A DNA stretch of 32,000 bases from Acaryochloris marina MBIC11017 (GTDB taxonomy: Bacteria > Cyanobacteriota > Cyanobacteriia > Thermosynechococcales > Thermosynechococcaceae), in assembly GCF_000018105.1 (NCBI RefSeq), contig NC_009925.1, forward strand, positions 3,240,001-3,272,000, in the 5' to 3' direction. Below the pieces are notes generated by a model. That model made no database searches, was not told where the DNA came from, and was given only the letters and a program-made list of their open reading frames with translations. Below are positions 8,357 through 24,456 of the stretch, piece by piece. The position numbers and the translations under genes are program-made. How positions within the stretch are numbered: position 1 is the first letter of the stretch; each line of letters opens with the position of its first letter.

Positions 8357-10186
8357 TTATGGTCTGTACATCACCCAGCCTCTAGAGGTGAGAAACTGAC
8401 TGTTGGAGTTTGAATTGCCATAACTGAGCATTTCATGTTTGGCCGACTTGGGGCAGCCATCGGTACTCTGTTCACCAATACAGAGCAGCTTCCAGCCAGA
8501 AAAGGTAGTGGAACTACCGGGAGAAATCGGCTCAATACCAGGATTGACTGATTGAAATTGGTTAAATAATTGATTCAGTGCTAAAAATTGGGACTGACTG
8601 AGAGATGCAATGTTGGCACTGTAAGCGGGAATGGGTTGATTAGGATTTTGGATCACTTGATCAACAATAGAAATCTCAGGCTGCCTTGCTGGTGGGGGCG
8701 TACTCCCAAGATCTTGCACATCAGGCTTGGCCCATTGGGGTTTGAGAGATATGCGACAGCGTGGATTGTCTAAGTTGCAGTACAACTCTTGACACTGAAG
8801 CTGTTGCCAAAGGGCTGCCTCGTCACTATAAAAGAAATCACTGCCAATTCCTGGACCTCTGGGTAAAAGAACATTACAGGCATGTTGTCGAGTGCCCGTA
8901 ATTTTTAATACGCCAGCCGTATAAGTCTGAATTTCGTCATTATTGCTATTGGCAACATTGACTGTTTTGGTAATGGTAGGGTTGGGGGGCGTGTCATGAC
9001 TGAGGGGGGCAGCCGAAATGGCTTCCTCATCTGGATCATTGAAGCTATCAGCAGGGGCGGCTGCCTCATCCTCAGCATCTTGCTCTGCAGCATTGGTAGA
9101 AATGATGGGATTCACTTCCTGAACGGGCGGTTTTAAGATCATGGCTGCTCCCATAATGCTGGCGGCAATTACACTAGTGCCTGCAATGACAGGAACCAAC
9201 CAGTTCTTACTCGGCTTTACCTCTGCTTGGTTAGACACTGGTGCAGCAGGTTGTGAAGTCATGGGTGTTGGCACGACATACTCAGTCGTTGCCAAGGTGT
9301 CTGAAGTTTGCGGAGTAGGTGGTATGGGTGGCGTATCCCTAATGGGAGTCGAAGGGTTGACGACGGTGGATTTTGCTTGTTGTAAGGCCTGAATGGCTTC
9401 TCCAGCGGTTTGATAGCGCTCTTTGAAGTGGTAGCGCACCATTTTGGTGAGAAATTGAGCAAAGCCACTGCTAACGTCGGCTTGGCCGATCCAAACTAGT
9501 TCGCCTTCGTCATCTTCTGGGAGTTGGGCAGGGGAGAGTCCGGTGAGGGCTTGAATACCAATAATGCCAACGGCATAAAGGTCGCTGCTAAATCGAGGTT
9601 TGCCACGGGTTTGTTCAGTGGGCATGTATCCTGGGGTGCCAATCGCGACAGTTTGGCTGACTTGTCCTGATATAACAGTTTGTTGGGCACGCACTTCTTT
9701 AACCGCTCCAAAGTCAATCAGAACCAGTTGGTTGTCCTGTTGGCGGCGAAGAATATTGTCTGGCTTAATGTCTCGATGAATCACCTTTTGGTCATGGACA
9801 AACGTAAGAATATTGAGAATTTCCTCCATTAGCTGGATAACCTGGGGTTCACTCCAACACTGGCCGAGAGGTAGCTCCTGAGTAAGCGGATGCCCTTCAA
9901 TAAATTCTTGTACCAGATAAAATTCAGCACTTTGCTCAAAGTAAGCTAACAGCTGGGGAATCTGAGAGTGCTTCCCCAGTTTTTGGAGAGTTTCTGCTTC
10001 GCTAAAAAATAAACGCTTAATCGTAGTGAGAAAGTCAGAATCTGCCTTGGCCGCATGGAGGCGCTTAACCACGCATTGGGGCTGACCTGGTAAGTGGGTG
10101 TCTTTGGCGATAAACGTTTGTCCCATCCCTCCAGCAGCGAGTGGTTGGATGATCTGGTAATGCCCAGCAAGAATTTGTTCAGTCAT
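8357..10186 (-). CDS. Hanks-type Ser/Thr protein kinase with one TM helix and a Cys-containing extracytoplasmic domain
   Basis: Gly-rich loop LAAGGMGQTF, VVKRL lysine, HRDIKPDN, DFG, GTPGYMPTE. Pro-rich linker. TM WLVPVIAGTSVIAASIMGAAMIL (res 329-351). ~258-aa C-terminal domain with 6 Cys. Confidence 0.9.
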   Translation of the reverse strand: MTEQILAGHYQIIQPLAAGGMGQTFIAKDTHLPGQPQCVVKRLHAAKADSDFLTTIKRLFFSEAETLQKLGKHSQIPQLLAYFEQSAEFYLVQEFIEGHPLTQELPLGQCWSEPQVIQLMEEILNILTFVHDQKVIHRDIKPDNILRRQQDNQLVLIDFGAVKEVRAQQTVISGQVSQTVAIGTPGYMPTEQTRGKPRFSSDLYAVGIIGIQALTGLSPAQLPEDDEGELVWIGQADVSSGFAQFLTKMVRYHFKERYQTAGEAIQALQQAKSTVVNPSTPIRDTPPIPPTPQTSDTLATTEYVVPTPMTSQPAAPVSNQAEVKPSKNWLVPVIAGTSVIAASIMGAAMILKPPVQEVNPIISTNAAEQDAEDEAAAPADSFNDPDEEAISAAPLSHDTPPNPTITKTVNVANSNNDEIQTYTAGVLKITGTRQHACNVLLPRGPGIGSDFFYSDEAALWQQLQCQELYCNLDNPRCRISLKPQWAKPDVQDLGSTPPPARQPEISIVDQVIQNPNQPIPAYSANIASLSQSQFLALNQLFNQFQSVNPGIEPISPGSSTTFSGWKLLCIGEQSTDGCPKSAKHEMLSYGNSNSNSQFLTSRGWVMYRP

Positions 10187-15721: not shown

Positions 15722-16732
15722 TTACTCAACGGCTTTGGCTACGTCTCCAACCTTAAAACCTGTGCCGGTCAGAATCTTGCCGACAGAGGATTGGGCATCG
15801 ACTTCGGTGAGTTGAATGCGACCCACAGACTGAGTCTGGCGACGTAATAATTTACCCGTTGTCGGATCCTTAATATCTTTGATCACTCGTTCGACAGAGA
15901 CAACCATACCAGGGCGAAAGCCATGAACGCCCCCCTTGTTGAGAACGATTTGATTGCCAGTGACATCGGCAACCACCATTTCTTCTACAGGGAGAGTGGC
16001 GGGCTTGGCCGCGAGCTTAGGAGCTACTGCTGCAAGTTGGGATACAATTTTATCCACGGCTTGACCTGAAGCTTCACCCAAGAGGCGCTCGCTACTGTCA
16101 GAGTTGCTATCAACACCAATACCAAAAATACGACCACGACCCCCACTTTTATCTGCTTGGCCGGTGCCTTCAGCAGCGGTGAGAATTTCTCCTGTGGCTG
16201 TACTGACGAGGCGGGTAGAGAGTTGAACCGTTGCAAGCTGGGTTTTTTGTTTGCCTCCTAGACCAAAGAATCCTCCAATAGAACCGCCTTTGGATTGTTC
16301 TTCGATATGAAACTGAGTAATGGAACCAATCAGGACTGCATCGACTCCAAGGACTCGACCAATTTGAGCAGCAGTGGTGGGCTCAATCCGACCTGATGCG
16401 CCTAGGTTCTGTTCAGCTAGGATGGTGTCAATTTTGCTGCGTTCCACCAGGACGTAGGTGCCATCTTTGACGAGTTCATTGGTCAGCAGATTACTGATAC
16501 CTCGGGATGCGCCGTTTTTGCCGTATAACCCATAGCTAATCCCAGTTTTGCTAACGTTGGCATAATCGAAGTCGAGAACGGCGATGCGTCGGCTTTCTTT
16601 GACTTTGATTTGCTCAACCCCAATGCCTGGAGCGCTGAAGGGGTTGGCATAGACTGAACCCGGAACGCAAAAAGCGGTTAGAACCGTGAGGGCAATAGAA
16701 AGTTTCGCAATGGGTAAAACTGTATGTTTCAT
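15722..16732 (-). CDS. CsgG/HfaB-family (curli-type secretion channel-like) protein
   Basis: Signal peptide, then IAVLDFDYANVS...GISNLLTNELVKDGTYVLVERSKIDTILAEQNL, typical of the CsgG fold. Extra C-terminal ~90-aa beta-rich domain. Confidence 0.75.
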   Translation of the reverse strand: MKHTVLPIAKLSIALTVLTAFCVPGSVYANPFSAPGIGVEQIKVKESRRIAVLDFDYANVSKTGISYGLYGKNGASRGISNLLTNELVKDGTYVLVERSKIDTILAEQNLGASGRIEPTTAAQIGRVLGVDAVLIGSITQFHIEEQSKGGSIGGFFGLGGKQKTQLATVQLSTRLVSTATGEILTAAEGTGQADKSGGRGRIFGIGVDSNSDSSERLLGEASGQAVDKIVSQLAAVAPKLAAKPATLPVEEMVVADVTGNQIVLNKGGVHGFRPGMVVSVERVIKDIKDPTTGKLLRRQTQSVGRIQLTEVDAQSSVGKILTGTGFKVGDVAKAVE

Positions 16733-16828: not shown

Positions 16829-18085
16829 TTAACGATCACAAATGGTATGAATCGACTGTCGGCAGTTCTTGGAGGCAATATTGATCGCTTCTAAGGCTCG
16901 CTGATAATCAGCTTGGTTGTTGTCTTTAAGCGCTAGATCGGCGGCGGTGCGTAAGTCGGTGAGGGCGGCCCCTTGTTGACCTTGGTTGAGATATACAATC
17001 CCTCGGTTGTAGTAGAGAATGGCGTGGTCTCCCTGGAGCTGAATGGCCTGGGAGTAATCTGCGATCGCACCCCTCGTATCCCCTAGAGACGATTGCACCA
17101 AAGCCCGACCAATATAGGCTTGCAGCAGATTTTTGTCCAACTGAATCGCCTGATTAAAATCCTGTAAGGCTCCCGTCTGATCTTGTTTGACGAGGCGAAT
17201 GCTGCCTCGCAGGGCATAGGCTGGGGCAAATTGAGAATTTTGGCTAATAGCCTGGGTGGTATTGCGTAACGCTCCGGCCATATTCCCCAGACGATATTGA
17301 TCTAAGGCTTGCACGTAGAAGTCAGAGGCACTGGAAGGTGCAGAGGGGATAGAGGTAATGGGTTTAATGGGGGTAGTGACGGTATTGGCCGGGGCCATCT
17401 TCAAGAAAGTATGAATCGGAATCCCGAGGTTAAACCCCGTTTTGATAAAGATATCGGGGTTGATATTTTGATTTTGAACCGTAGTGGTGGTGTCTGCACG
17501 GCCATGAATGCCTAGTAGTTTGCCGTCCTTATCTAGAACGGGTCCACCACTCATGCCGGGGAGAGTGTTGTTGGTATAAACCAGGGCATAGCCATCACTT
17601 AAGGGACGAGTGGCATTGGCCGTAATCGTGCCTGTGGTGAAGTTGTAGATAATATCTGTCAACGCCTGAGTTCGGCTGGGAAACCCGGCGACGTAGCTTT
17701 CGCTGCCTTCTGAGAGCTGTTGAGAGTCGCCAATTTTGACCACCGTATAGGGGCGGTCACTGGTAAATTCCAGTAAGGCTAAGTCAACCCCAGGAAATTT
17801 GGTAATCGTTTGCACATTGACGGGATATTCCTGGCCATCATTGGTGATCACGACGTATTCATCGACGGTGGCCACAACGTGGGCTGCGGTCAAAACGGTA
17901 TAGCGATTGCCATTGCGTTTGATAATTACGCCAGAGCCGGGGGCTTGGCTATCGACCCGCACAGTGATTTGTTTGGCGACTTTGTTAATTTCAGCGGGGC
18001 TAAGGGCGAGGGTGACTTGCGGTGCCAAGACCATGGCGGCAACCGTTCCTAGGAGCAGGGTGGAAAATTTTTGGGGAATGTTCAT
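16829..18085 (-). CDS. Secreted trypsin-like (S1) serine protease fused to TPR repeats
   Basis: Signal peptide. Catalytic triad contexts TAAHVV, DLALLEF, GMSGGPV. C-terminal ~170 aa form TPR-like repeats (AYALRGSIRL..., AYIGRALVQS..., LYYNRGIVYL...). Confidence 0.85.
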   Translation of the reverse strand: MNIPQKFSTLLLGTVAAMVLAPQVTLALSPAEINKVAKQITVRVDSQAPGSGVIIKRNGNRYTVLTAAHVVATVDEYVVITNDGQEYPVNVQTITKFPGVDLALLEFTSDRPYTVVKIGDSQQLSEGSESYVAGFPSRTQALTDIIYNFTTGTITANATRPLSDGYALVYTNNTLPGMSGGPVLDKDGKLLGIHGRADTTTTVQNQNINPDIFIKTGFNLGIPIHTFLKMAPANTVTTPIKPITSIPSAPSSASDFYVQALDQYRLGNMAGALRNTTQAISQNSQFAPAYALRGSIRLVKQDQTGALQDFNQAIQLDKNLLQAYIGRALVQSSLGDTRGAIADYSQAIQLQGDHAILYYNRGIVYLNQGQQGAALTDLRTAADLALKDNNQADYQRALEAINIASKNCRQSIHTICDR

Positions 18086-18116: not shown

Positions 18117-18369
18117 AAACCGATGCTTGGATGTCTTACCTAGTTAGCATATGACTCTGGTTCGAGGATACCCTAACCCTGTTTGAGGTTAGACAAGGTT
18201 TTATTCACCAGAATAAAAACCAGCATCTGTTTTAATCTTAACGACTTAATTTTAGGAGACTAAGACTTGGATCACGGCTAGGGAGTGATCTTGGAAGGGT
18301 CTTGGCCGCTTTTGGTGATGCCAATTATGAGGTAGAGGATAGAGAAGTAAACCCTTGCCAGATCTGGTT

Positions 18370-19469
18370 ATGGAACTCCTCCAGCAATTCCTTCCGTGCC
18401 AAGACACCCTCCATCTAGAAAGTTGGGATCTTGAATTCTAACCATCAAATAACCTTCCATGTTTCTTCAACCCAAGTCTTTGCATGTTGTCCAGTCTGCA
18501 ATCAAATCACCCACCGCGTCCACAGTCGTTATGAGCGAACCCTGAGAGACCTTCCCTGTGTGGATTTCTGCCTGACCATTCTGCTTCAAGTTTGCAAGTT
18601 CTTTTGCCGTAACGAGGCTTGCAAACGCTGCATCTTTACTGAGCGATTGCCCAAGGTTGCTGTTCCTTGGGCCAGAAAGACTATTCGGTTTGCTGAACAC
18701 CTTACCTCGATTGGCCTAGCCCTTGGGGGTGCCGCAGCAGCGAGGCTGAGCTATCAGATCAATTATGGGAGTAGTCGCAATACGATGTTACGCTCTATTG
18801 CCAAGCTAGAGCCTCCCCCTGCCCCAACCCCTAAGATTCTAGGGGTAGATGATTTTGCCTTTCAGCGTGGCCATCACTATGGCACGATTCTGGTGGACTT
18901 AGAACACCATCGGACTATTGCCCTCCTACCAGATCGTGATGCAAAAACTTTAGTCGCTTGGTTGGAAGAACACCCTGGTGTTGAAATCCTTTCTCGTGAC
19001 CGCTCCAAGACCTACAAGTCTGCCATAAGTGAAGGTGCGCCCAATGCCATTCAGGTCGCAGATCGCTTCCACCTGCTGAAGAACTTACAAGAAGTATTGG
19101 AAAAGGTATTTCACTCTAACTATCCTGCGCTGAAAAGTGTTGATGCAGCCCTCTTGAAATCTGAAGTACCTGAGCCACATGCACCAGAGAGTAACGAGAA
19201 AAGCAAGGTGCCTCCCGATGAGCAAGGTCCTCGGAGTCGTGCTCATCGATTGAACAACTATCAACAAACTCATGCCTTGAAGCAGCAGGGGTATTGAGTG
19301 ACTGACATTGCTCATCATCTAGGTATTGCCAAAAGGACTGCTTACCAGTATTTGTCCCACCCATTCTTTCCTGAACATCAGCCCTATACCCGTAAAGTGC
19401 CTACTGTTATCGAGCCTTACAAAGACTATCTTTACCAAGAGTGGATGGCTGGGCGACAGAATAGCTATT
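18370..19469 (+). pseudogene. ISL3-family transposase, inactivated (frameshift, in-frame TGA, missing C-terminal catalytic region)
   Basis: MELLQQFLPCQDTLHLESWDL (ATG 18370) is in a different frame from the main ORF (18431..), so there is an indel between 18419 and 18441. zf-ISL3 CPVC...HSRYERTLRDLP...FFCRNEAC. DDE parts GVDDFAF, LSRDRSKTY, ADRFHLLKN. TGA at 19295-19297. The HTH part DIAHHLGIAKRTAYQYL continues to ~19469. No SNG-VEG-type E region appears in any frame. Confidence 0.75.
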
Positions 19470-20236
19470 GTACGAAGTACCGTGACGCCTTGATTGGGCA
19501 CAAATCGATCAAGTGTGTTAAGACGAACGATCTCGATGCTGAGACCGTGGCCGTTCTTGAAACTCTCCCCCGCCTTGAGCAACTTCAGATCTCACATCGC
19601 CGGATACCGTCATCCCTCAACCTGGCTGGTCTTTCGAGTTGCCGCTATGTGATGCTAAACGATGTGCGTCAATTAGAGAGTCTTGACATTGTCGCTAACA
19701 TGCCGTCGCTTGAGTGCTTGTTCGTGCGTGGTCCCAAAACGCTAGATCTGGAGGCGTTGTCAACTCTCAATTTGCGCGAGTTGGCCATGTGGTGCTTTTT
19801 CCCCTGGACGGAAATGGATCCACTTTTTTCAAATACAAAGCTTGAGTATTTGTGTCTTGGAGGAATTAAACCTGCGCCGGAAGATTGTGGTCGATTTCGA
19901 GATCTTAAGCACCTGGAGCAGATCGAATTCAACAGCAGTTCTCATCCCTTTGATTTTTACGCCAGAATGGATAGCGTTCTTTCCCAACGAGTTGACCGCA
20001 ATTGGAGACTACTTGTGCGACTTGCAGAGGAATGCAGCGTACACCCTGGCCACCCTCTCCTTCAGGCGTCGGGTTCGCGACAACGACCATTCTGTGAATT
20101 GTGTTCCCCGAAACGCCTAGAAAAACTCGCTGTTTGTTATGCCTCTCTTACCGGAGTTCCGCTGCCTGTCCCGAAGGTGGAATCAGAGCAATTTGGAATG
20201 TCAAAAGACGGCAAGCACTATCGCTTTTTTACATGA
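19298..20236 (+). CDS. Chimeric ORF: ISL3 transposase HTH segment fused in frame to a leucine-rich-repeat-like region
   Basis: It is in the same frame as 18431..19297, separated only by one TGA. Residues ~1-57 are transposase-like. Residues ~80-215 show irregular LxxLxL repeats (LPRLEQLQISH, LESLDIVANMPSLECLFV, LNLRELAMW, KLEYLCLGG, LKHLEQIEFN). Expression is uncertain. Confidence 0.45.
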   Translation: MTDIAHHLGIAKRTAYQYLSHPFFPEHQPYTRKVPTVIEPYKDYLYQEWMAGRQNSYCTKYRDALIGHKSIKCVKTNDLDAETVAVLETLPRLEQLQISHRRIPSSLNLAGLSSCRYVMLNDVRQLESLDIVANMPSLECLFVRGPKTLDLEALSTLNLRELAMWCFFPWTEMDPLFSNTKLEYLCLGGIKPAPEDCGRFRDLKHLEQIEFNSSSHPFDFYARMDSVLSQRVDRNWRLLVRLAEECSVHPGHPLLQASGSRQRPFCELCSPKRLEKLAVCYASLTGVPLPVPKVESEQFGMSKDGKHYRFFT

Positions 20237-20472
20237 CCAGATGTTGGCATTTTTAATGGGACTGATGACCAAGCCGTGCACAGGACAACGGCATTTTAAT
20301 ATTTACATCATTCCGTAGTTGCTGGGGACACAGATAACCATGGTATGAACGCGGAGCCAGCGAACTCGCGTTTTGAAGATGGAAGGATTTCTGCGCCAGC
20401 CCGTTTATGCCAAACGTTACCCTACCTTCTCAGATCACCAAAAGCGGCCAAGACCCTCTTGGGTTGAAAATT

Positions 20473-22674
20473 CTACCGAACACTGGCTTGAGTCACTTCC
20501 TTGGTCTGTTCTTGACTTGGTATTGCTATATTGTCAGGATCTTGCCTGCAGTATTGCTCTTTAAAGTGTTCCTGAACGTAGTAATGAACAAATTGATAAT
20601 GCCCCGCAACACACAGAATGAAGCGATAATTTTCAGCTTGTTGCAAGAATTTTGCGAAGTTCCAAGGGGCAACACCGGACTGAAAAAGAACAAAGCGTAA
20701 ACAGATGTGTTTAATTACTTCTTCAAGTCCGCTAGTTAGCATAACGATAAGTCCGATAGTTAATCCGCAAATACATCCTCCAATCAGCCAGCTTGTTGAA
20801 TTGAAAAGTACTACAATCACTAGCCCTCCAAGTACCCCTCCAATCACCCCTCCAATTAGTCCAAGACTTATGGAAGTTGCGATTGATTCTTTGATTCCTT
20901 GATTGGGACTTGGATGGTGAGTTCTCTTTGATTCTTTAACTATACCAGCGCTTAATCCTTCAATTAGCCCTACAACTAGTCCAAAAATAAGCCCTCCAAT
21001 ATGCCCTTCAGTCTGTCCAAAAGTTTGCCTAAAAATTAGTCCTCCAAATAGTCCTCCAAATAGTCCTCCTATTAACCAGAACATCAGCTTTTGTCTGAAA
21101 TTGGTCCAAGAGAACTTAGTTTTTCCTGTTACTTTAATATCAGTGTTCCATTTTTCATGCCCTCGTTTTAATCCACAGCTTAGACCAATTATTAGACCTC
21201 CAATTAGCCCTCTGTTTAACTTGAATATTGGTCCTCCAATTAGGCTATCTAAAAGCCTTCCAATGAAGCCACCAACTAATCCTCCGGTTAGTGAAAAAAT
21301 TAGTATAGTTATCTGTCTAAAAAATTTTTTTTGGTCTGGTTTTAACCAAGATGGCTGTAAACCCTCAATCCAAAAACAGGTTGGTGTTTTATGGGTATCT
21401 TTGCTTTTGCTAAGGTTCTTGGCTAGCCAACCTAGGTAATCTAAAATCTTATCTGATGTTGGCAATTTTTTTGATCTATGAATGCTATTTTGATCATCTT
21501 TACTGAGTTGATAATGTATATATTTATCGATAATCTCATCACGACAGAGTGGCATGGTAAGTGAATCAATATCTTCATCTTGATAAGCAGCTACCAACAT
21601 AGAGAGGAAAAAAGGTAAATAAGTTATGTCTTCCTCTTCATGAGTAAAATTCTTGCTTAATACACTTTTGAGTGATCCCTTACCTAAGTTATGAAAATAA
21701 CTTTGAATTTGAAGTGTATCAGGTTTCTTTAAGTTAATGACTCCGTTCAAATATTTAAATATTTGAGTGTTGCTTTCTGGGTTTTCATTTCCTTCACTTC
21801 TACAGCAAATTAGACATTTAGTTAATGGATTCTGTTCTAAGAAGCCATTTATAGATTGAATACATAACCTCTGACTTTTTGTGTATGAAGATTTGATACT
21901 ATCTAACTCATCTATTTCTCTTAGATCATCTAATCCATCTAGAAATAGAAAAATATGATTTTGATCAATTAATATTTTGGTGTCTGATTTTGGAACGCCA
22001 TATTTGTTTTTAATCTGAGTAAATAGCCATTTCTCAAACTCTTGTTCTTCATAAGAATATTGAGATAGGTCTAAAGGTATTGGGATAGGATTGTCAGATA
22101 GTGTTTTATGTTTTTGTAGAAAAACTATCTCTTCTAAAAGAAGTTGTTTAGCTGTTTCTAGCAACTCATCAGTTTTTCCTGACCCATGTTCTCCAAGCAT
22201 GAGGCATCTACCTTTTATATAGTCATGCTCTAAAAAAGAAACTGTTGTTGGGTGATCTGCATAATTTAGGATTCGTGGTGTTTTCTTGTCTGAAAAATTT
22301 TCATTAGGTGGTATGACTGTGAGAAGAGCTGTCTTATGCTGAAGACCAATACGAAATTTGGATTCATATCGTGAGTCTTTAAGTTTTAAAATGACTTCTT
22401 TCCAAACTTTTTTGAGTAAGGTTTGACGAGTAAATAAGATTTCTTGATCTTTGATTTTTGCTTGTCTAGGGAATAAATTATGAATGGTTTTTTGTATGCC
22501 TTCAATAACTGTAGGAGCGTTCTCAGTAATCTTTGCTAGTGCTGTAATTATTGAAGACGTACCTAATGTATTTAGAATGTTTTGCCAACTGCTAGCCACT
22601 TCAATGGCATCAGATGGGTTGGCTTTGCTACTGGTTGCAATGGTAGACACCCACGATATAATGTCATGAATCAT
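20473..22674 (-). CDS. NACHT/STAND-type P-loop NTPase with an embedded six-helix glycine-zipper membrane module
   Basis: 733 aa. Walker A GEHGSGKT (res 161-168, nt 22171-22194). Walker B IFLFLDGLDD (res 241-250). LICCRSE (TSR-like) at 288-294. Residues ~452-650 form six hydrophobic GxxxG-rich helices (GGLVGGFIG, LIGGLIIGL, LIGGLFGGLFGGL, IGGLIFGLVVGL, LIGGVIGGVLGGL, LIGGCICGLTIGL) separated by basic loops. The tail ...GHYQFVHYYVQEHF resembles C-termini of cyanobacterial NACHT proteins. The gene is very AT-rich. Confidence 0.8.
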   Translation of the reverse strand: MIHDIISWVSTIATSSKANPSDAIEVASSWQNILNTLGTSSIITALAKITENAPTVIEGIQKTIHNLFPRQAKIKDQEILFTRQTLLKKVWKEVILKLKDSRYESKFRIGLQHKTALLTVIPPNENFSDKKTPRILNYADHPTTVSFLEHDYIKGRCLMLGEHGSGKTDELLETAKQLLLEEIVFLQKHKTLSDNPIPIPLDLSQYSYEEQEFEKWLFTQIKNKYGVPKSDTKILIDQNHIFLFLDGLDDLREIDELDSIKSSYTKSQRLCIQSINGFLEQNPLTKCLICCRSEGNENPESNTQIFKYLNGVINLKKPDTLQIQSYFHNLGKGSLKSVLSKNFTHEEEDITYLPFFLSMLVAAYQDEDIDSLTMPLCRDEIIDKYIHYQLSKDDQNSIHRSKKLPTSDKILDYLGWLAKNLSKSKDTHKTPTCFWIEGLQPSWLKPDQKKFFRQITILIFSLTGGLVGGFIGRLLDSLIGGPIFKLNRGLIGGLIIGLSCGLKRGHEKWNTDIKVTGKTKFSWTNFRQKLMFWLIGGLFGGLFGGLIFRQTFGQTEGHIGGLIFGLVVGLIEGLSAGIVKESKRTHHPSPNQGIKESIATSISLGLIGGVIGGVLGGLVIVVLFNSTSWLIGGCICGLTIGLIVMLTSGLEEVIKHICLRFVLFQSGVAPWNFAKFLQQAENYRFILCVAGHYQFVHYYVQEHFKEQYCRQDPDNIAIPSQEQTKEVTQASVR

Positions 22675-23172
22675 AATTTTTACCGATTTATAGAGATTCT
22701 TTTGGAATGACTCTCTTAATGCAGATAAAATATTTTCGATTTATAGATAGTATTATAAGACAGGTGATTATGTGAATGGAGGTTCTTGACCAACTTGCTT
22801 GGTTCAACGAATGTCACCTTGAATTTATAGCGATCTGATGATCGATGCTATGGCTTGATGACGGTATTTTCAGTGGTTTACAATTACATAAACTGAAAAA
22901 TTCATTTTCGAGATGAGCATATGTCGAAAATAGTATGTGTTATTTTATTTGGCAACAATAAGTCTTTGGCATAGCCGGTCCTACTCTATATCTGTTGAAG
23001 CGTGATTAGTGTGTAAGACTTTTTTTCAGTAAGGAATTCTAGAATTTCTTTAGCAAGCACTCTTGAAAATCTTTCTAGTTTTAAGTTTGATATCTCTATC
23101 ATGATTGAATAAAAATAGTGCTAAATAGACTAGTACAATTATCCCTACTTATTTTGTATGGATTAGAGCATT

Positions 23173-24456
23173 ATGCCTCGTTTCCTCCATGTTGCTGATG
23201 TACATTTGGGCTACACCAAATATGACTCACCAGAGCGTACCAAAGATTTTTTTCACGCTTTTAGTGATGCGCTTGAACGCTATGCCATTGAACCCCAGGT
23301 CGACTTTGTCCTGATTGTTGGGGACTTGTTTGAGCATCGCCAAGTGCTACCTGCGATCCTCAATCAAGCGCAGCTCTGCCTGAGACGATTACAAGAAGTC
23401 GGTATACCCGTCTTAGCGATTGAAGGAAATCATGATTATTGCCTCTATGGAACGAATACCAGTTGGTTGCGATATCTAGCGAGTTGGGATCTTCTAATGC
23501 TGTTGGAACCGGATGAGAATGAGCAGTTGATGCCTTGGGATCCGGATACTAAACGTGGAGGCTATATTGATCTTGACTGTGGTGTGCGAGTGATTGGGTC
23601 TCGGTGGTATGGAGCGGCTGCGCCTCAGGCAATTCAATCCTTAGCCCCTTTGATAGAAAAACTCCCTTCTGGCCCTGATCATACGGTGATGATGTTCCAT
23701 CATGGGTTAGAAGGACATGTCTCTCGCTACAGTGGTGCATTGCGCTATCAAGACTTTGCTCCCTTGCTAACCGCAGGTGTAGATTATTTAGCCCTTGGCC
23801 ATATCCACCGCAGCTACTCTGCCGAAAGCTGGATTTTTAACCCTGGCTCCATCGAAGCGAATAGCGTGATTGAAAACCAAGACCAGAATCCTCGGGGGGT
23901 GTTCTTGGTCAACCTAACCAAAAAAGGAATCAAAGCTGATCTCAAATCCGATTATTATCAACGCCATATTGAGCGCTTAAACCTAAAAGCAGATCCGAAG
24001 CAAACGGCTGCAGAATTGGAAGCAGCGGCAATTACTACGATTGAAACGGCCTACAAAAACGGCAAAACAGAAGATGCCATCGTAGAACTAAAAATTCAGG
24101 GCACAATTGGATTTGAGCGTTCTGATTTGAATGTGAAAGAGCTGAGGACTCAACTCCATACCCTCAGTAAAGCTTTAATCATGCTGATTAAATATGAAGT
24201 CACTGGGGTTGAATATCACAGCTATATCAGCGATCAAGAAGAACTCCCCTCTCGCCACGATATTGAGCGATTGGTTTTTACCGATCTTTTAGCTGCGAAT
24301 GCTCATTACCGAGACCAGGCAGAATCCCTTTCTTCAGGCCTTATGGATCTAAAAGATCGCCTACTTAAACAGCAAACTGAACCTGAACTCTATCAATATG
24401 CTCAGGAACTGCTGTCTGCAAAGTCTTCAGAAGCGGATAAGCCAGTGCAAGATTAG
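23173..24456 (+). CDS. sbcD: SbcD/Mre11-family metallophosphoesterase (DNA repair exonuclease-like)
   Basis: All calcineurin-like motifs are present: ADVHLG, VGDLFE, GNHD, MFHHG, GHIH. ~160-aa C-terminal capping/dimerisation-like region. No sbcC-like ATPase gene is adjacent. Confidence 0.8.
   Translation: MPRFLHVADVHLGYTKYDSPERTKDFFHAFSDALERYAIEPQVDFVLIVGDLFEHRQVLPAILNQAQLCLRRLQEVGIPVLAIEGNHDYCLYGTNTSWLRYLASWDLLMLLEPDENEQLMPWDPDTKRGGYIDLDCGVRVIGSRWYGAAAPQAIQSLAPLIEKLPSGPDHTVMMFHHGLEGHVSRYSGALRYQDFAPLLTAGVDYLALGHIHRSYSAESWIFNPGSIEANSVIENQDQNPRGVFLVNLTKKGIKADLKSDYYQRHIERLNLKADPKQTAAELEAAAITTIETAYKNGKTEDAIVELKIQGTIGFERSDLNVKELRTQLHTLSKALIMLIKYEVTGVEYHSYISDQEELPSRHDIERLVFTDLLAANAHYRDQAESLSSGLMDLKDRLLKQQTEPELYQYAQELLSAKSSEADKPVQD

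Follow-up and report, generated by a model that had tools for sequence, protein, structure and literature searches.

A NACHT-clade NTPase of Acaryochloris marina with a glycine-zipper hairpin array probably inserted in its winged-helix domain

Background

We analysed a stretch of 32,000 nucleotides of the genome of Acaryochloris marina MBIC11017 (contig NC_009925.1, positions 3,240,001 to 3,272,000), denoted here as the window, with a focus on one of its genes, AM1_3222. A preliminary description of this DNA, made from its sequence, had read the gene as a NACHT/STAND NTPase in which six glycine-zipper helices take the place of an expected sensor domain.

Results

The gene and its NACHT module

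The open reading frame (ORF) studied here is 100% identical to AM1_3222, for which UniRef gives the name 'NACHT domain-containing protein'. It is not a chance frame, since the probability of 733 open codons at the base composition of the gene is P ~ 10^-24.5 and the longest open frame over 300 shuffles of its DNA was 166 codons. The structure of the protein was modelled with AlphaFold 2 (AF2) on 59 sequences, giving a predicted local distance difference test (pLDDT) score of 79.9 and a predicted template modelling (pTM) score of 0.76. The parts of the gene are listed below. In the list, (-) denotes the reverse strand, WHD denotes the winged-helix domain, and the basis of each entry is given in brackets.

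20473 to 22674 (-): whole ORF of AM1_3222, a NACHT protein of 733 residues with a membrane insert (TAG stop at 20473-20475)
22450 to 22674 (-): residues 1-75, orphan N-terminal region, presumed output or adaptor region (AF2)
21475 to 22449 (-): residues 76-400, with a conserved pre-NACHT helix (76-102), the P-loop nucleotide-binding domain (NBD) and helical domain 1 (HD1), which ends in the 'PFFLSML' helix (alignments and AF2)
22171 to 22194 (-): Walker A GEHGSGKT, residues 161-168, with K167 (sequence)
21925 to 21951 (-): Walker B FLFLDGLDD, residues 242-250, with D246-G-L-D-D250 (sequence)
21793 to 21807 (-): CCRSE strand, residues 290-294, with the sensor-1 arginine R292 (sequence)
21340 to 21474 (-): residues 401-445, putative first WHD part, with helix 407-423, strand 433-434 and the conserved F434, E437, Q440 and P441 of 'FWIEGLQPSWL' (alignments and AF2)
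20725 to 21339 (-): residues 446-650, glycine-zipper hairpin array of six long hydrophobic helices in three hairpins (sequence and AF2)
20896 to 20907 (-): P590-N-Q-G593 loop on the NACHT side, between hairpins 2 and 3 (alignments)
20542 to 20724 (-): residues 651-711, putative second WHD part, with helix 'EEVIKHICLRFVL', G667..P670, helix 673-682, beta-hairpin 686-695 and helix 698-711, and with Y693-x-F695-x-H697 (alignments and AF2)

The NTPase motifs lie at the residues where the preliminary description had placed them, and its assignment of the protein to the NACHT/STAND NTPases agrees with structure comparison, with profile comparison and with the Pfam scores of the relatives. In the family alignments of 19 and 59 sequences, G161, G164, G166, K167 and T168 of Walker A are invariant, and C290 and R292 of the strand that AF2 models at residues 286-292 are at least 90% conserved, C290 being invariant in one of the alignments. 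Across relatives, D246, C290/R292 and P354 are invariant or almost so, and AM1_3222 keeps every invariant catalytic and family residue (K167, D246, R292, P354, N591-G593 and H697). Kibby et al. (10.1101/2022.07.19.500537) give as the signature of the NACHT clade, after Walker B, D[GAS]hDE, where a small residue follows the Mg-binding aspartate and two acidic residues come next. The second acidic residue of AM1_3222 is aspartate and not glutamate (DGLDD), which matches D[GAS]hD[DE]; DGLDE is found in 117 of 128 relatives and DGLDD in 2 of them.

The 12 best Foldseek matches of the model in the PDB are all animal NLRs, including NOD2 (6e-7), NLRC4, NLRP3 and NLRP14. When the hydrophobic block was removed from the family profile (the delta-insert profile), it matched NLRC4 (3e-4, the best PDB sequence) and NOD2, in alignments that begin at Walker A and include the 'PLxLsI' helix, whereas the full-length family profile matched only P-loop fragments among the PDB sequences. 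Pfam NACHT (PF05729) is passed by 41 of the 45 long relatives (at least 790 residues); AM1_3222 alone reaches 17.9 bits, under the cut-off of 26.7, and has no other Pfam match at E <= 1. Its sole NCBIfam match is a P-loop-level one of 12 bits to HyoA, and none of the families of PADLOC-DB v2, which include Avs and bNACHT among others, matches it at E <= 1. Neither Pfam nor NCBIfam nor PADLOC holds a model of the glycine-zipper membrane module. Taken on its sequence and model, AM1_3222 is shown to be a NACHT-clade STAND NTPase with intact NTPase motifs.

The helical N-terminal domain proposed for residues 1 to about 75 was seen in the model as four short helices, although at low confidence only (pLDDT 51-63). 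No homologue of this region was found among 270 relatives, nor among 5.8e9 proteins except for a frameshifted copy of the same locus. That copy (P0271, 95 residues, L010:3702-3989, from SRR059204) was considered as a free-standing N-terminal domain and rejected: it lies in the same DCC1/Metallophos context, is identical to residues 1-61 and is then frameshifted, and is an assembly or sequencing artefact. The region has 2 glycines in 75 residues, is not rich in G, N or Q, and carries none of the motifs of the relatives described below. A partner for it was sought among the ORFs of the window, with no match (best E = 1.8).

Position of the hydrophobic block

Family alignments show the segment before the block conserved as 'LxWLA...FLIEGLQPSWL'. 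After the block, a conserved 'IKHxxLRLxL' helix is followed by 'GxxPWNY' and by the almost invariant Y693-x-F695-x-H697, with HYQFVH as residues 692-697 of AM1_3222. This last part of the protein was modelled with pLDDT 88-95, and it is, with H697, at least 90% conserved. The block appears to be inserted in the WHD because the order of elements without the insert reads helix-strand-helix-helix-wing and ends in F-x-H. The F-x-H motif is typical of NLR WHDs. The delta-insert profile matches every examined relative as two pieces that are 200-760 residues apart, and relatives of the NBD in Streptomyces show the same two-piece layout.

Judging from the model, we are fairly confident that the membrane block sits within the WHD of the NACHT module. 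The preliminary description had put the block in place of a C-terminal sensor and had taken residues 651-706 for a short cytosolic tail; the order of elements in the model and their conservation indicate an insertion inside the WHD instead, of which the tail would be the second half. H697 would be a candidate equivalent of the histidine whose mutation hyperactivates NLRs. A profile of the split WHD alone was also tried and gave noise (TRAP1, E = 0.04).

Two NACHT proteins encoded on Streptomyces plasmids (L014:3389-5167 and L015:3524-5878), with NBDs 32-37% identical, carry hydrophobic helices between the first WHD helix and a 'GxGYxFxH..L.EHLA' tail ('RFLAYADDRALMRRAGDGYQYLHATMLEHLA'). These helices are rich in Ala and Leu and have no glycine zippers. 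Since the position of the insert is shared, the design of a membrane insert in the WHD would span phyla.

The membrane module

The six hydrophobic helices were modelled at residues 446-479, 486-508, 523-552, 554-576, 592-624 and 628-665 and are paired into three hairpins. Residues 452-650 contain 24 GxxxG and 15 GxxxGxxxG motifs, compared to 0 in the remainder of the protein, and glycine makes up 20.6% of them compared to 3.4% elsewhere. Lysine and arginine are found 16 times on the loops of the NACHT side and 2 times on the hairpin turns. Both ends of each hairpin are predicted to face the cytoplasm because of this distribution, and at the level of sequence the array is shown to enter and leave the membrane on the NACHT side (in-in topology).

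A naive Hessa dG scan predicted autonomous insertion (dG < 0) for residues 530-548, 606-624 and 629-647, marginal values (about +2) for two helices, and a poor value (+6.8) for helix 2, which has 14 apolar residues only. AM1_3222 is thus very probably membrane-embedded. The arrangement of six glycine-zipper helices in three hairpins, as first described, is supported by the AF2 model, the glycine motifs and conservation, but some hairpins may be re-entrant instead of spanning the membrane fully.

The DNA of the helix region (20809-21288) is a 12-nt (4-codon) periodic repeat with 16 in-register copies, in three clusters of 60-75% identity. This suggests that units of the 'GGLI' type may be duplicated, or multiplied by slippage, as hairpins grow. 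Among the loops of the module, conservation is highest in PNQG, which is also the point where WD40 propellers are nested in relatives.

The family

With a profile of residues 405-706, 4,106 representatives of clusters at 50% identity were matched at E <= 1e-30, and at E <= 1e-10 their number rose to 8,656. The members that bear a name are listed as 'NACHT domain-containing proteins' and come from Moorena, Okeania, Symplocastrum, Leptolyngbya and Chloroflexota. The family is therefore very large and belongs chiefly to filamentous cyanobacteria and Chloroflexota, with the cousins without glycine zippers in Streptomyces. Plasmid copies are frequent (16 records in Nostoc, 4 in Acaryochloris). The nearest homologue of AM1_3222 is only 34% identical.

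The order of the module in the family is IEGLQP, variable hairpins, PNQG, a fixed hairpin, H..LR and then Y-x-F-x-H. We give the variation in module length as distances between these anchors, since a heuristic that counted hydrophobic helices was too noisy and was dropped. The distance from IEGLQP to PNQG is variable (median 165 residues, range 78-701), while that from PNQG to H..LR is almost constant (median 65 residues, interquartile range 63-72). The protein P0010 and a tandem paralogue have a WD40 propeller nested directly in front of the PNQG loop, and P0010 has no N-terminal enzyme.

The short N-terminus of AM1_3222 is the common form, since Walker A lies at residues 100-199 in 80 of the 128 full-length members (about 63%). 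The 45 members of at least 790 residues have added N-terminal domains, namely CHAT in 6, TIR_2 in 5, DUF4062 in 3, HTH_3 in 3 and Pkinase in 2. TIR_2, EAD1 and HTH domains were also seen N-terminally among the sequence matches of AM1_3222.

Two candidates for a relative free of the insert were rejected; the plasmid match H17 seemed contiguous but is an ordinary family member, and H28 is a tail-only fragment of 114 residues. A plasmid of Streptomyces akebiae has an annotated protein of 114 residues (L013:2896-3240) that consists of the WHD tail of the family only ('YYWTVRFVLARDRAVPYRYGHFLGDAERRILMRRSGSGFRFPHRLIQEHI') and is probably a gene remnant.

Gene clusters and shared motifs of relatives

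No conserved housekeeping operon was found around the relatives at the loci examined. Several family members, abbreviated below as NACHT-TM (TM for transmembrane), lie among other STAND genes. At locus L002 a CHAT gene is upstream and an nSTAND1-WD40 gene downstream, and at L003 genes for NB-ARC-TPR, NACHT-TM and nSTAND1-WD40 proteins stand in a row beside an integrase gene. At L007 (L007:496-13389) there are three tandem NACHT-TM paralogues (786, 1217 and 1184 residues), two of which have WD40 propellers nested in the membrane module just before the PNQG loop, with a TCAD9-Peptidase_C14 (caspase) gene lying opposite. L006 is an integrase/excisionase island with a TIR version of NACHT-TM; on a Nostoc plasmid (L012) an integrase gene and a VapC toxin gene are near the family member; and at L001, L008 and L009 only transposases surround it.

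Six consecutive genes of L003 (L003:1702-17358) share a G/N/Q-rich motif of about 20 residues, 'V[TWK]G[DN].NQ.I[GA]...GG'. One of the genes encodes a Bell-like helical protein of 180 residues, with the motif at its C-terminus ('...VTGNQNQVIGQVTGGNVFGNV'). The five genes downstream encode proteins that have the motif in the N-terminal region, namely two NB-ARC-TPR proteins, the NACHT-TM protein ('VTGDRNQVIGQMLGGIVINQL'), the nSTAND1-WD40 protein and a protein of 1169 residues in which Pfam finds no domain. The motif distribution makes the locus look like one executioner wired to five alternative receptors. At L002 (L002:6702-12630) the CHAT (caspase-like) protein carries the L003 motif between its protease domain and an N-terminal helical domain that is homologous to the 180-residue protein of L003; the NACHT-TM and nSTAND1-WD40 genes follow, with the motif at each N-terminus. 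Four STANDs of L007 share another N-terminal motif, 'GVTIGDVEGGIHD..IAGRDV', and at L001 a protein of 131 residues and the NACHT-TM protein share their first 40 residues (52% identity). Because the STANDs within each of L002, L003 and L007 share a motif, NACHT-TM fills the same slot as the TPR and WD40 receptors.

The surroundings of AM1_3222 in the window

The GC content of AM1_3222 is 0.355 (0.26 at third codon positions) compared to 0.472 for the window, so that it is AT-richer than its surroundings as first noted. The low-GC segment is the gene with its promoter region. Two features adjoin the gene, where (+) denotes the forward strand and (.) no strand.

18296 to 20457 (+): apparently complete insertion sequence (IS) of ISL3 type, 2,162 bp, context only (perfect 24-nt terminal inverted repeats)
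22675 to 23172 (.): AT-rich divergent intergenic region, 498 bp, presumed promoter (composition)

The inverted repeats of the IS are at 18296-18319 and 20434-20457 (AGGGTCTTGGCCGCTTTTGGTGAT), and its right end is 15 nt past the TAG stop of AM1_3222, which agrees with the adjacent IS element of the preliminary description. The target duplication is ambiguous (CTTGGA vs CTTGGG). The IS ORFs at 18431-19297 and 19298-20236 are one frame broken by a single TGA at 19295-19297. The second of them, an LRR-like ORF of 312 residues, was rejected as a separate gene, since it is the in-frame continuation of the transposase after the TGA; of the ISL3 DDE profile only the first approximately 100 positions match, and the C-terminal half has just a weak LRR_4 match. 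The IS ORFs are transcribed toward AM1_3222 and the gene at 23173 away from it, and the reading of AM1_3222 as monocistronic holds. No terminator-like site was found at the locus, and no credible small ORF in the 498-bp intergenic region. Directly upstream of the start codon of AM1_3222 there is an imperfect direct repeat of 27 nt (22675-22701 and 22728-22754, 74% identity), which may be a regulatory element.

The neighbours in the window are genes for an SbcD-like phosphoesterase, a DCC1-like protein, an FMO, an SDR, and a pair of a trypsin-TPR and a CsgG protein. The SbcD-like calcineurin-type phosphoesterase (23173-24456, 427 residues), which is divergent from AM1_3222, has no adjacent SbcC-like partner and no PADLOC match. 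The secreted trypsin-like protease with C-terminal TPRs (16829-18085, (-)) adjoins the CsgG-family gene (15722-16732, (-)); its protease domain has generic PADLOC matches (LmuA, RT-protease), and a relation to AM1_3222 is unlikely. A Ser/Thr-kinase-like protein of 609 residues (8357-10186), 10 kb from AM1_3222, matches the PADLOC PD-T4-6 kinase models over residues 2-276 (E = 5e-100), which is probably generic kinase-domain similarity.

The preliminary description had seen an acquired accessory or defence locus. An isolated low-GC accessory gene beside an IS is indeed what we find; a defence island is not, because the immediate neighbours have no PADLOC match and the kinase and protease matches are generic. 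The lack of HIP1 sites, taken earlier as a sign of foreign origin, is uninformative because the 32 kb contain only 10 such sites, which gives an expectation of about 0.7 for 2.2 kb. The low GC content, the adjoining IS, the 34% identity to the nearest homologue and the variable contexts of the relatives (mobile, STAND-rich or plasmid-borne) point to an accessory nature, and an isolated, strain-specific gene, probably horizontally acquired, is a fair description of AM1_3222.

Discussion

A membrane-embedded switch

Our leading reading, in which belief and doubt are about evenly balanced, is that AM1_3222 is a membrane-embedded NLR-like switch with the hairpin array as its receptor and the N-terminus as its output. 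The preliminary description had mentioned a membrane-embedded sensor as its second choice, and this choice gains ground from the relatives, in which the module sits where the TPR and WD40 sensors of sister STANDs sit. In a resting, ADP-bound state, the two halves of the WHD would be held together, with H697 toward the nucleotide as in other NLRs and the hairpins packed. An intramembrane change would repack the hairpins and pull the WHD halves apart; candidate cues would be phage-encoded membrane proteins, loss of membrane potential, and envelope or lipid damage. The separation would free the ADP lock, so that the nucleotide could be exchanged and the protein could oligomerise within the membrane plane. 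The output would go through the clustered N-termini, which in relatives are TIR, CHAT, DUF4062, kinase or HTH domains, or motifs matching a Bell-like or CHAT executioner, and in AM1_3222 would be the orphan region of about 75 residues that is predicted to be helical. The biological role is likely abortive-infection-type or stress-triggered immunity, which in the case of AM1_3222 we infer.

A sensor role is suggested by the fact that the module is constant while the N-termini vary. The HTH-NACHT-TM members need an input other than the HTH, and, as with repeat sensors that can expand, the length before PNQG varies whereas that of the terminal hairpin does not. Most likely, as far as sequences go, the reading as a sensor fits the relatives better than that as a pore-forming effector. 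A more specific version, that the array would sense directly within the membrane and pass a disturbance of the bilayer mechanically to the switch, and in minimal members perhaps also form lesions as an output, is tentative and in our view rather doubtful. If this version were true, the family would provide the first NLR-type receptors to monitor the membrane from inside it.

Several points weigh against a membrane-embedded sensor. No experimental work on any family member was found in the literature searched. For AM1_3222 itself no effector domain, no BASS-like motif (see below) and no partner gene was recognised with Pfam, PADLOC and the ORFs of the window, which leaves the membrane module as the one evident part that could do damage; the PADLOC check proposed in the preliminary description gave no defence model for the gene or for its immediate neighbours either. 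Relatives of the P0010 type have a soluble sensor in the nested WD40 and no N-terminal enzyme, and therefore the membrane module need not be the sensor there. The extracytoplasmic turns have 4-12 residues only, and a periplasmic ligand is therefore unlikely, which would leave an intramembrane cue as a speculative choice. As to the WHD, its assignment rests on the order of secondary structure in AF2 and on motif resemblance. The sequence profiles did not reach solved NLR WHDs, with the delta-insert alignments to NLRC4 and NOD2 ending before the WHD. The ORFs at the loci of relatives, the plasmid matches and the Streptomyces relatives of the NBD included no relative free of the insert.

Other explanations

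The preliminary description had favoured a glycine-zipper bundle that acts as a nucleotide-gated, membrane-disrupting effector. The hairpins would then be the killing device, with 6 x n helices regrouping by their glycine faces to form a pore or lesion on NACHT oligomerisation and depolarising the membrane in abortive infection, and sensing would take place elsewhere, in cytosolic loops, a nested domain or the N-terminus. GxxxGxxxG helices are the toxic element of the membrane-depolarising toxins TelE, EsxX and the contact-dependent inhibition (CDI) ionophores, and STANDs fused to TM effectors are a known category. AM1_3222 and about 63% of the full-length relatives (80/128) have only a short N-terminus with no enzymatic domain, the P0010-type relatives pair the nested WD40 sensor with no other effector, and an insertion in the mobile WHD, if modelled correctly, would link the nucleotide state mechanically to the helices. 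However, many relatives already bear TIR, CHAT, kinase or effector-recruiting motifs at the N-terminus, the HTH-fused members imply a transcriptional and non-lytic output, and NACHT-TM of L002 and L003 is one of several receptors on one executioner. In STAND families, as Kibby et al. describe them, sensing usually falls to the constant domain adjacent to the nucleotide-binding oligomerisation domain (NOD), and the effector function to the variable end. Moreover, the highest conservation is in cytosolic loop residues and not in pore-lining positions, and the Streptomyces cousins keep the insert without glycine zippers. Such an effector fits the relatives less well, with effectors and motifs sitting N-terminally, and we consider it unlikely, though viable for minimal and WD40-nested members.

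The same conservation of loops would suit an array that only tethers and orients the NOD at the plasma or thylakoid membrane and concentrates the protomers in two dimensions. A cytosolic or peripheral ligand would then be bound and sensed by the conserved loops next to the membrane (IxxVExxxWSW, KxxPNQGI) or by a domain that is nested or N-terminal. Conservation peaks in the NACHT-side loops (I513, P590-N-Q-G593, S597) and in the IEGLQP and H..LR flanks, whereas all that persists in the helices is a GLxx periodicity. The turns of the trans side are very short, the WD40 propellers of relatives are inserted exactly at the PNQG loop, and helix 2 lacks the length and apolarity of a confident span, so that hairpins could be re-entrant. 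Six helices are nevertheless more than a simple anchor needs, neither the strictly conserved position inside the WHD across phyla nor the repeat-like expansion of hairpins is needed for a tether, and insertion within the switch domain suggests mechanical coupling. We regard a mere anchor as still less probable than the effector. Finally, AM1_3222 could be a membrane STAND with a housekeeping regulatory role, or an acquired divergent copy that is no longer functional. Its neighbours are ordinary metabolic and repair genes without PADLOC matches, it is very divergent (34% to the nearest relative, with Pfam NACHT below threshold), its N-terminus is an orphan, and the IS lies 15 nt from the stop codon with no terminator-like site. 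Against such a history, the frame of 733 codons is intact in AT-rich DNA, K167, D246, R292, P354, N591-G593 and H697 are all kept, and the homologues have no conserved housekeeping operon and are often in STAND/caspase clusters, integrative islands or plasmids, which makes it very improbable.

Comparison with known systems

The layout had been thought to be without known function, and no experimental function was found in the literature searched. The layout itself, however, is already catalogued. From computation, Kibby et al. (Supplementary Discussion item 4, 10.1101/2022.07.19.500537) list bacterial NACHT proteins with 'TM regions' as a class of predicted sensors, the signals of which would be intramembrane or periplasmic. 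The class is enriched among cyanobacteria, and its effectors, which are N-terminal, vary. AM1_3222 resembles this class in having multiple TM regions, namely six hydrophobic helices between the putative WHD parts, in a NACHT module. The class is, in the text examined, a computational category of one sentence, with no definition of the module, no glycine-zipper or PNQG features, no WHD insertion point and no experiment. The accessible part of the bNACHT supplementary tables contains no TM-architecture strings and no AM1_3222. AM1_3222 is a new divergent member of a catalogued, uncharacterised NACHT class, to which we add the definition of the module, the predicted WHD insertion point, the family size and plasmid spread, the nested-WD40 variants and the actinobacterial cousins without glycine zippers. 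We also add the shared-motif wiring that places NACHT-TM among the receptors of multi-STAND conflict clusters.

With NLRC4, NOD2, NLRP3, bNACHT01 and bNACHT25 the protein shares the P-loop, the D[GAS]hDE Walker B, the sensor-1 arginine and HD1, and its putative WHD would correspond to their WHD with a conserved histidine, the mutation of which hyperactivates NLRC4 (H443) and bNACHT25. It differs from the characterised NLRs in that its putative WHD is interrupted by about 200 hydrophobic residues and in that no LRR, TPR, WD40 or short C-terminal sensor follows the NOD.

NLR-associated amyloid-signalling motifs (BASS) paired with Bell, CHAT or TIR effectors are a known architecture for signalling from an NLR to an executioner (Dyrka et al. 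2020, 10.1101/2020.01.06.895854), and the Bab/Agp motif pair was shown to be an abortive-infection phage defence (Ibarlosa et al. 2024, 10.1101/2024.11.07.622273). The relatives in L001, L002, L003 and L007 are similar in having short N-terminal motifs that match an adjacent Bell-like or CHAT protein or sister STANDs, whereas AM1_3222 itself has no such motif or partner in the window. The published receptors are NB-ARC or NACHT proteins with TPR or WD40, and the word 'transmembrane' occurs 0 times in Dyrka et al. 2020.

The repeated GxxxG and GxxxGxxxG motifs in hydrophobic helices are shared with the membrane-depolarising toxins TelE, EsxX and the CdiA-CT ionophores. These are small secreted toxins with one or two helices, whereas AM1_3222 has six helices arranged as hairpins in a cytoplasmic switch protein. 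No sequence homology of AM1_3222 to glycine-zipper toxins was detected with Pfam.

The TM helices of KAP proteins interrupt the P-loop domain itself and not the WHD. PifA, for its part, is a membrane-associated phage-exclusion protein. The KAP P-loop NTPases, a group reportedly described by Aravind and co-workers in 2004 and said to include PifA of the F plasmid, are said to be a precedent for TM segments inserted within an NTPase module. In AM1_3222 the insert follows HD1 and the first WHD helix instead of lying in the NBD, there is no Pfam KAP_NTPase match at E <= 1, and the KAP proteins lack the NACHT Walker B signature.

AM1_3222 alone is of more modest value than the family, being divergent and isolated and having an orphan N-terminus. 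What the analysis provides as handles is the definition of the module, H697 as a candidate hyperactivating site, and the clusters in which NACHT-TM stands with a Bell-like or CHAT executioner and with TPR or WD40 sister receptors. To our knowledge, the bacterial and eukaryotic NLR-type receptors that are understood mechanistically are all soluble and read cytosolic ligands via repeat or short C-terminal domains. The present family, which comprises at least 4,100 clusters at 50% identity and is common on plasmids of cyanobacteria as well as within multi-STAND clusters, very probably puts the switch itself in the membrane.

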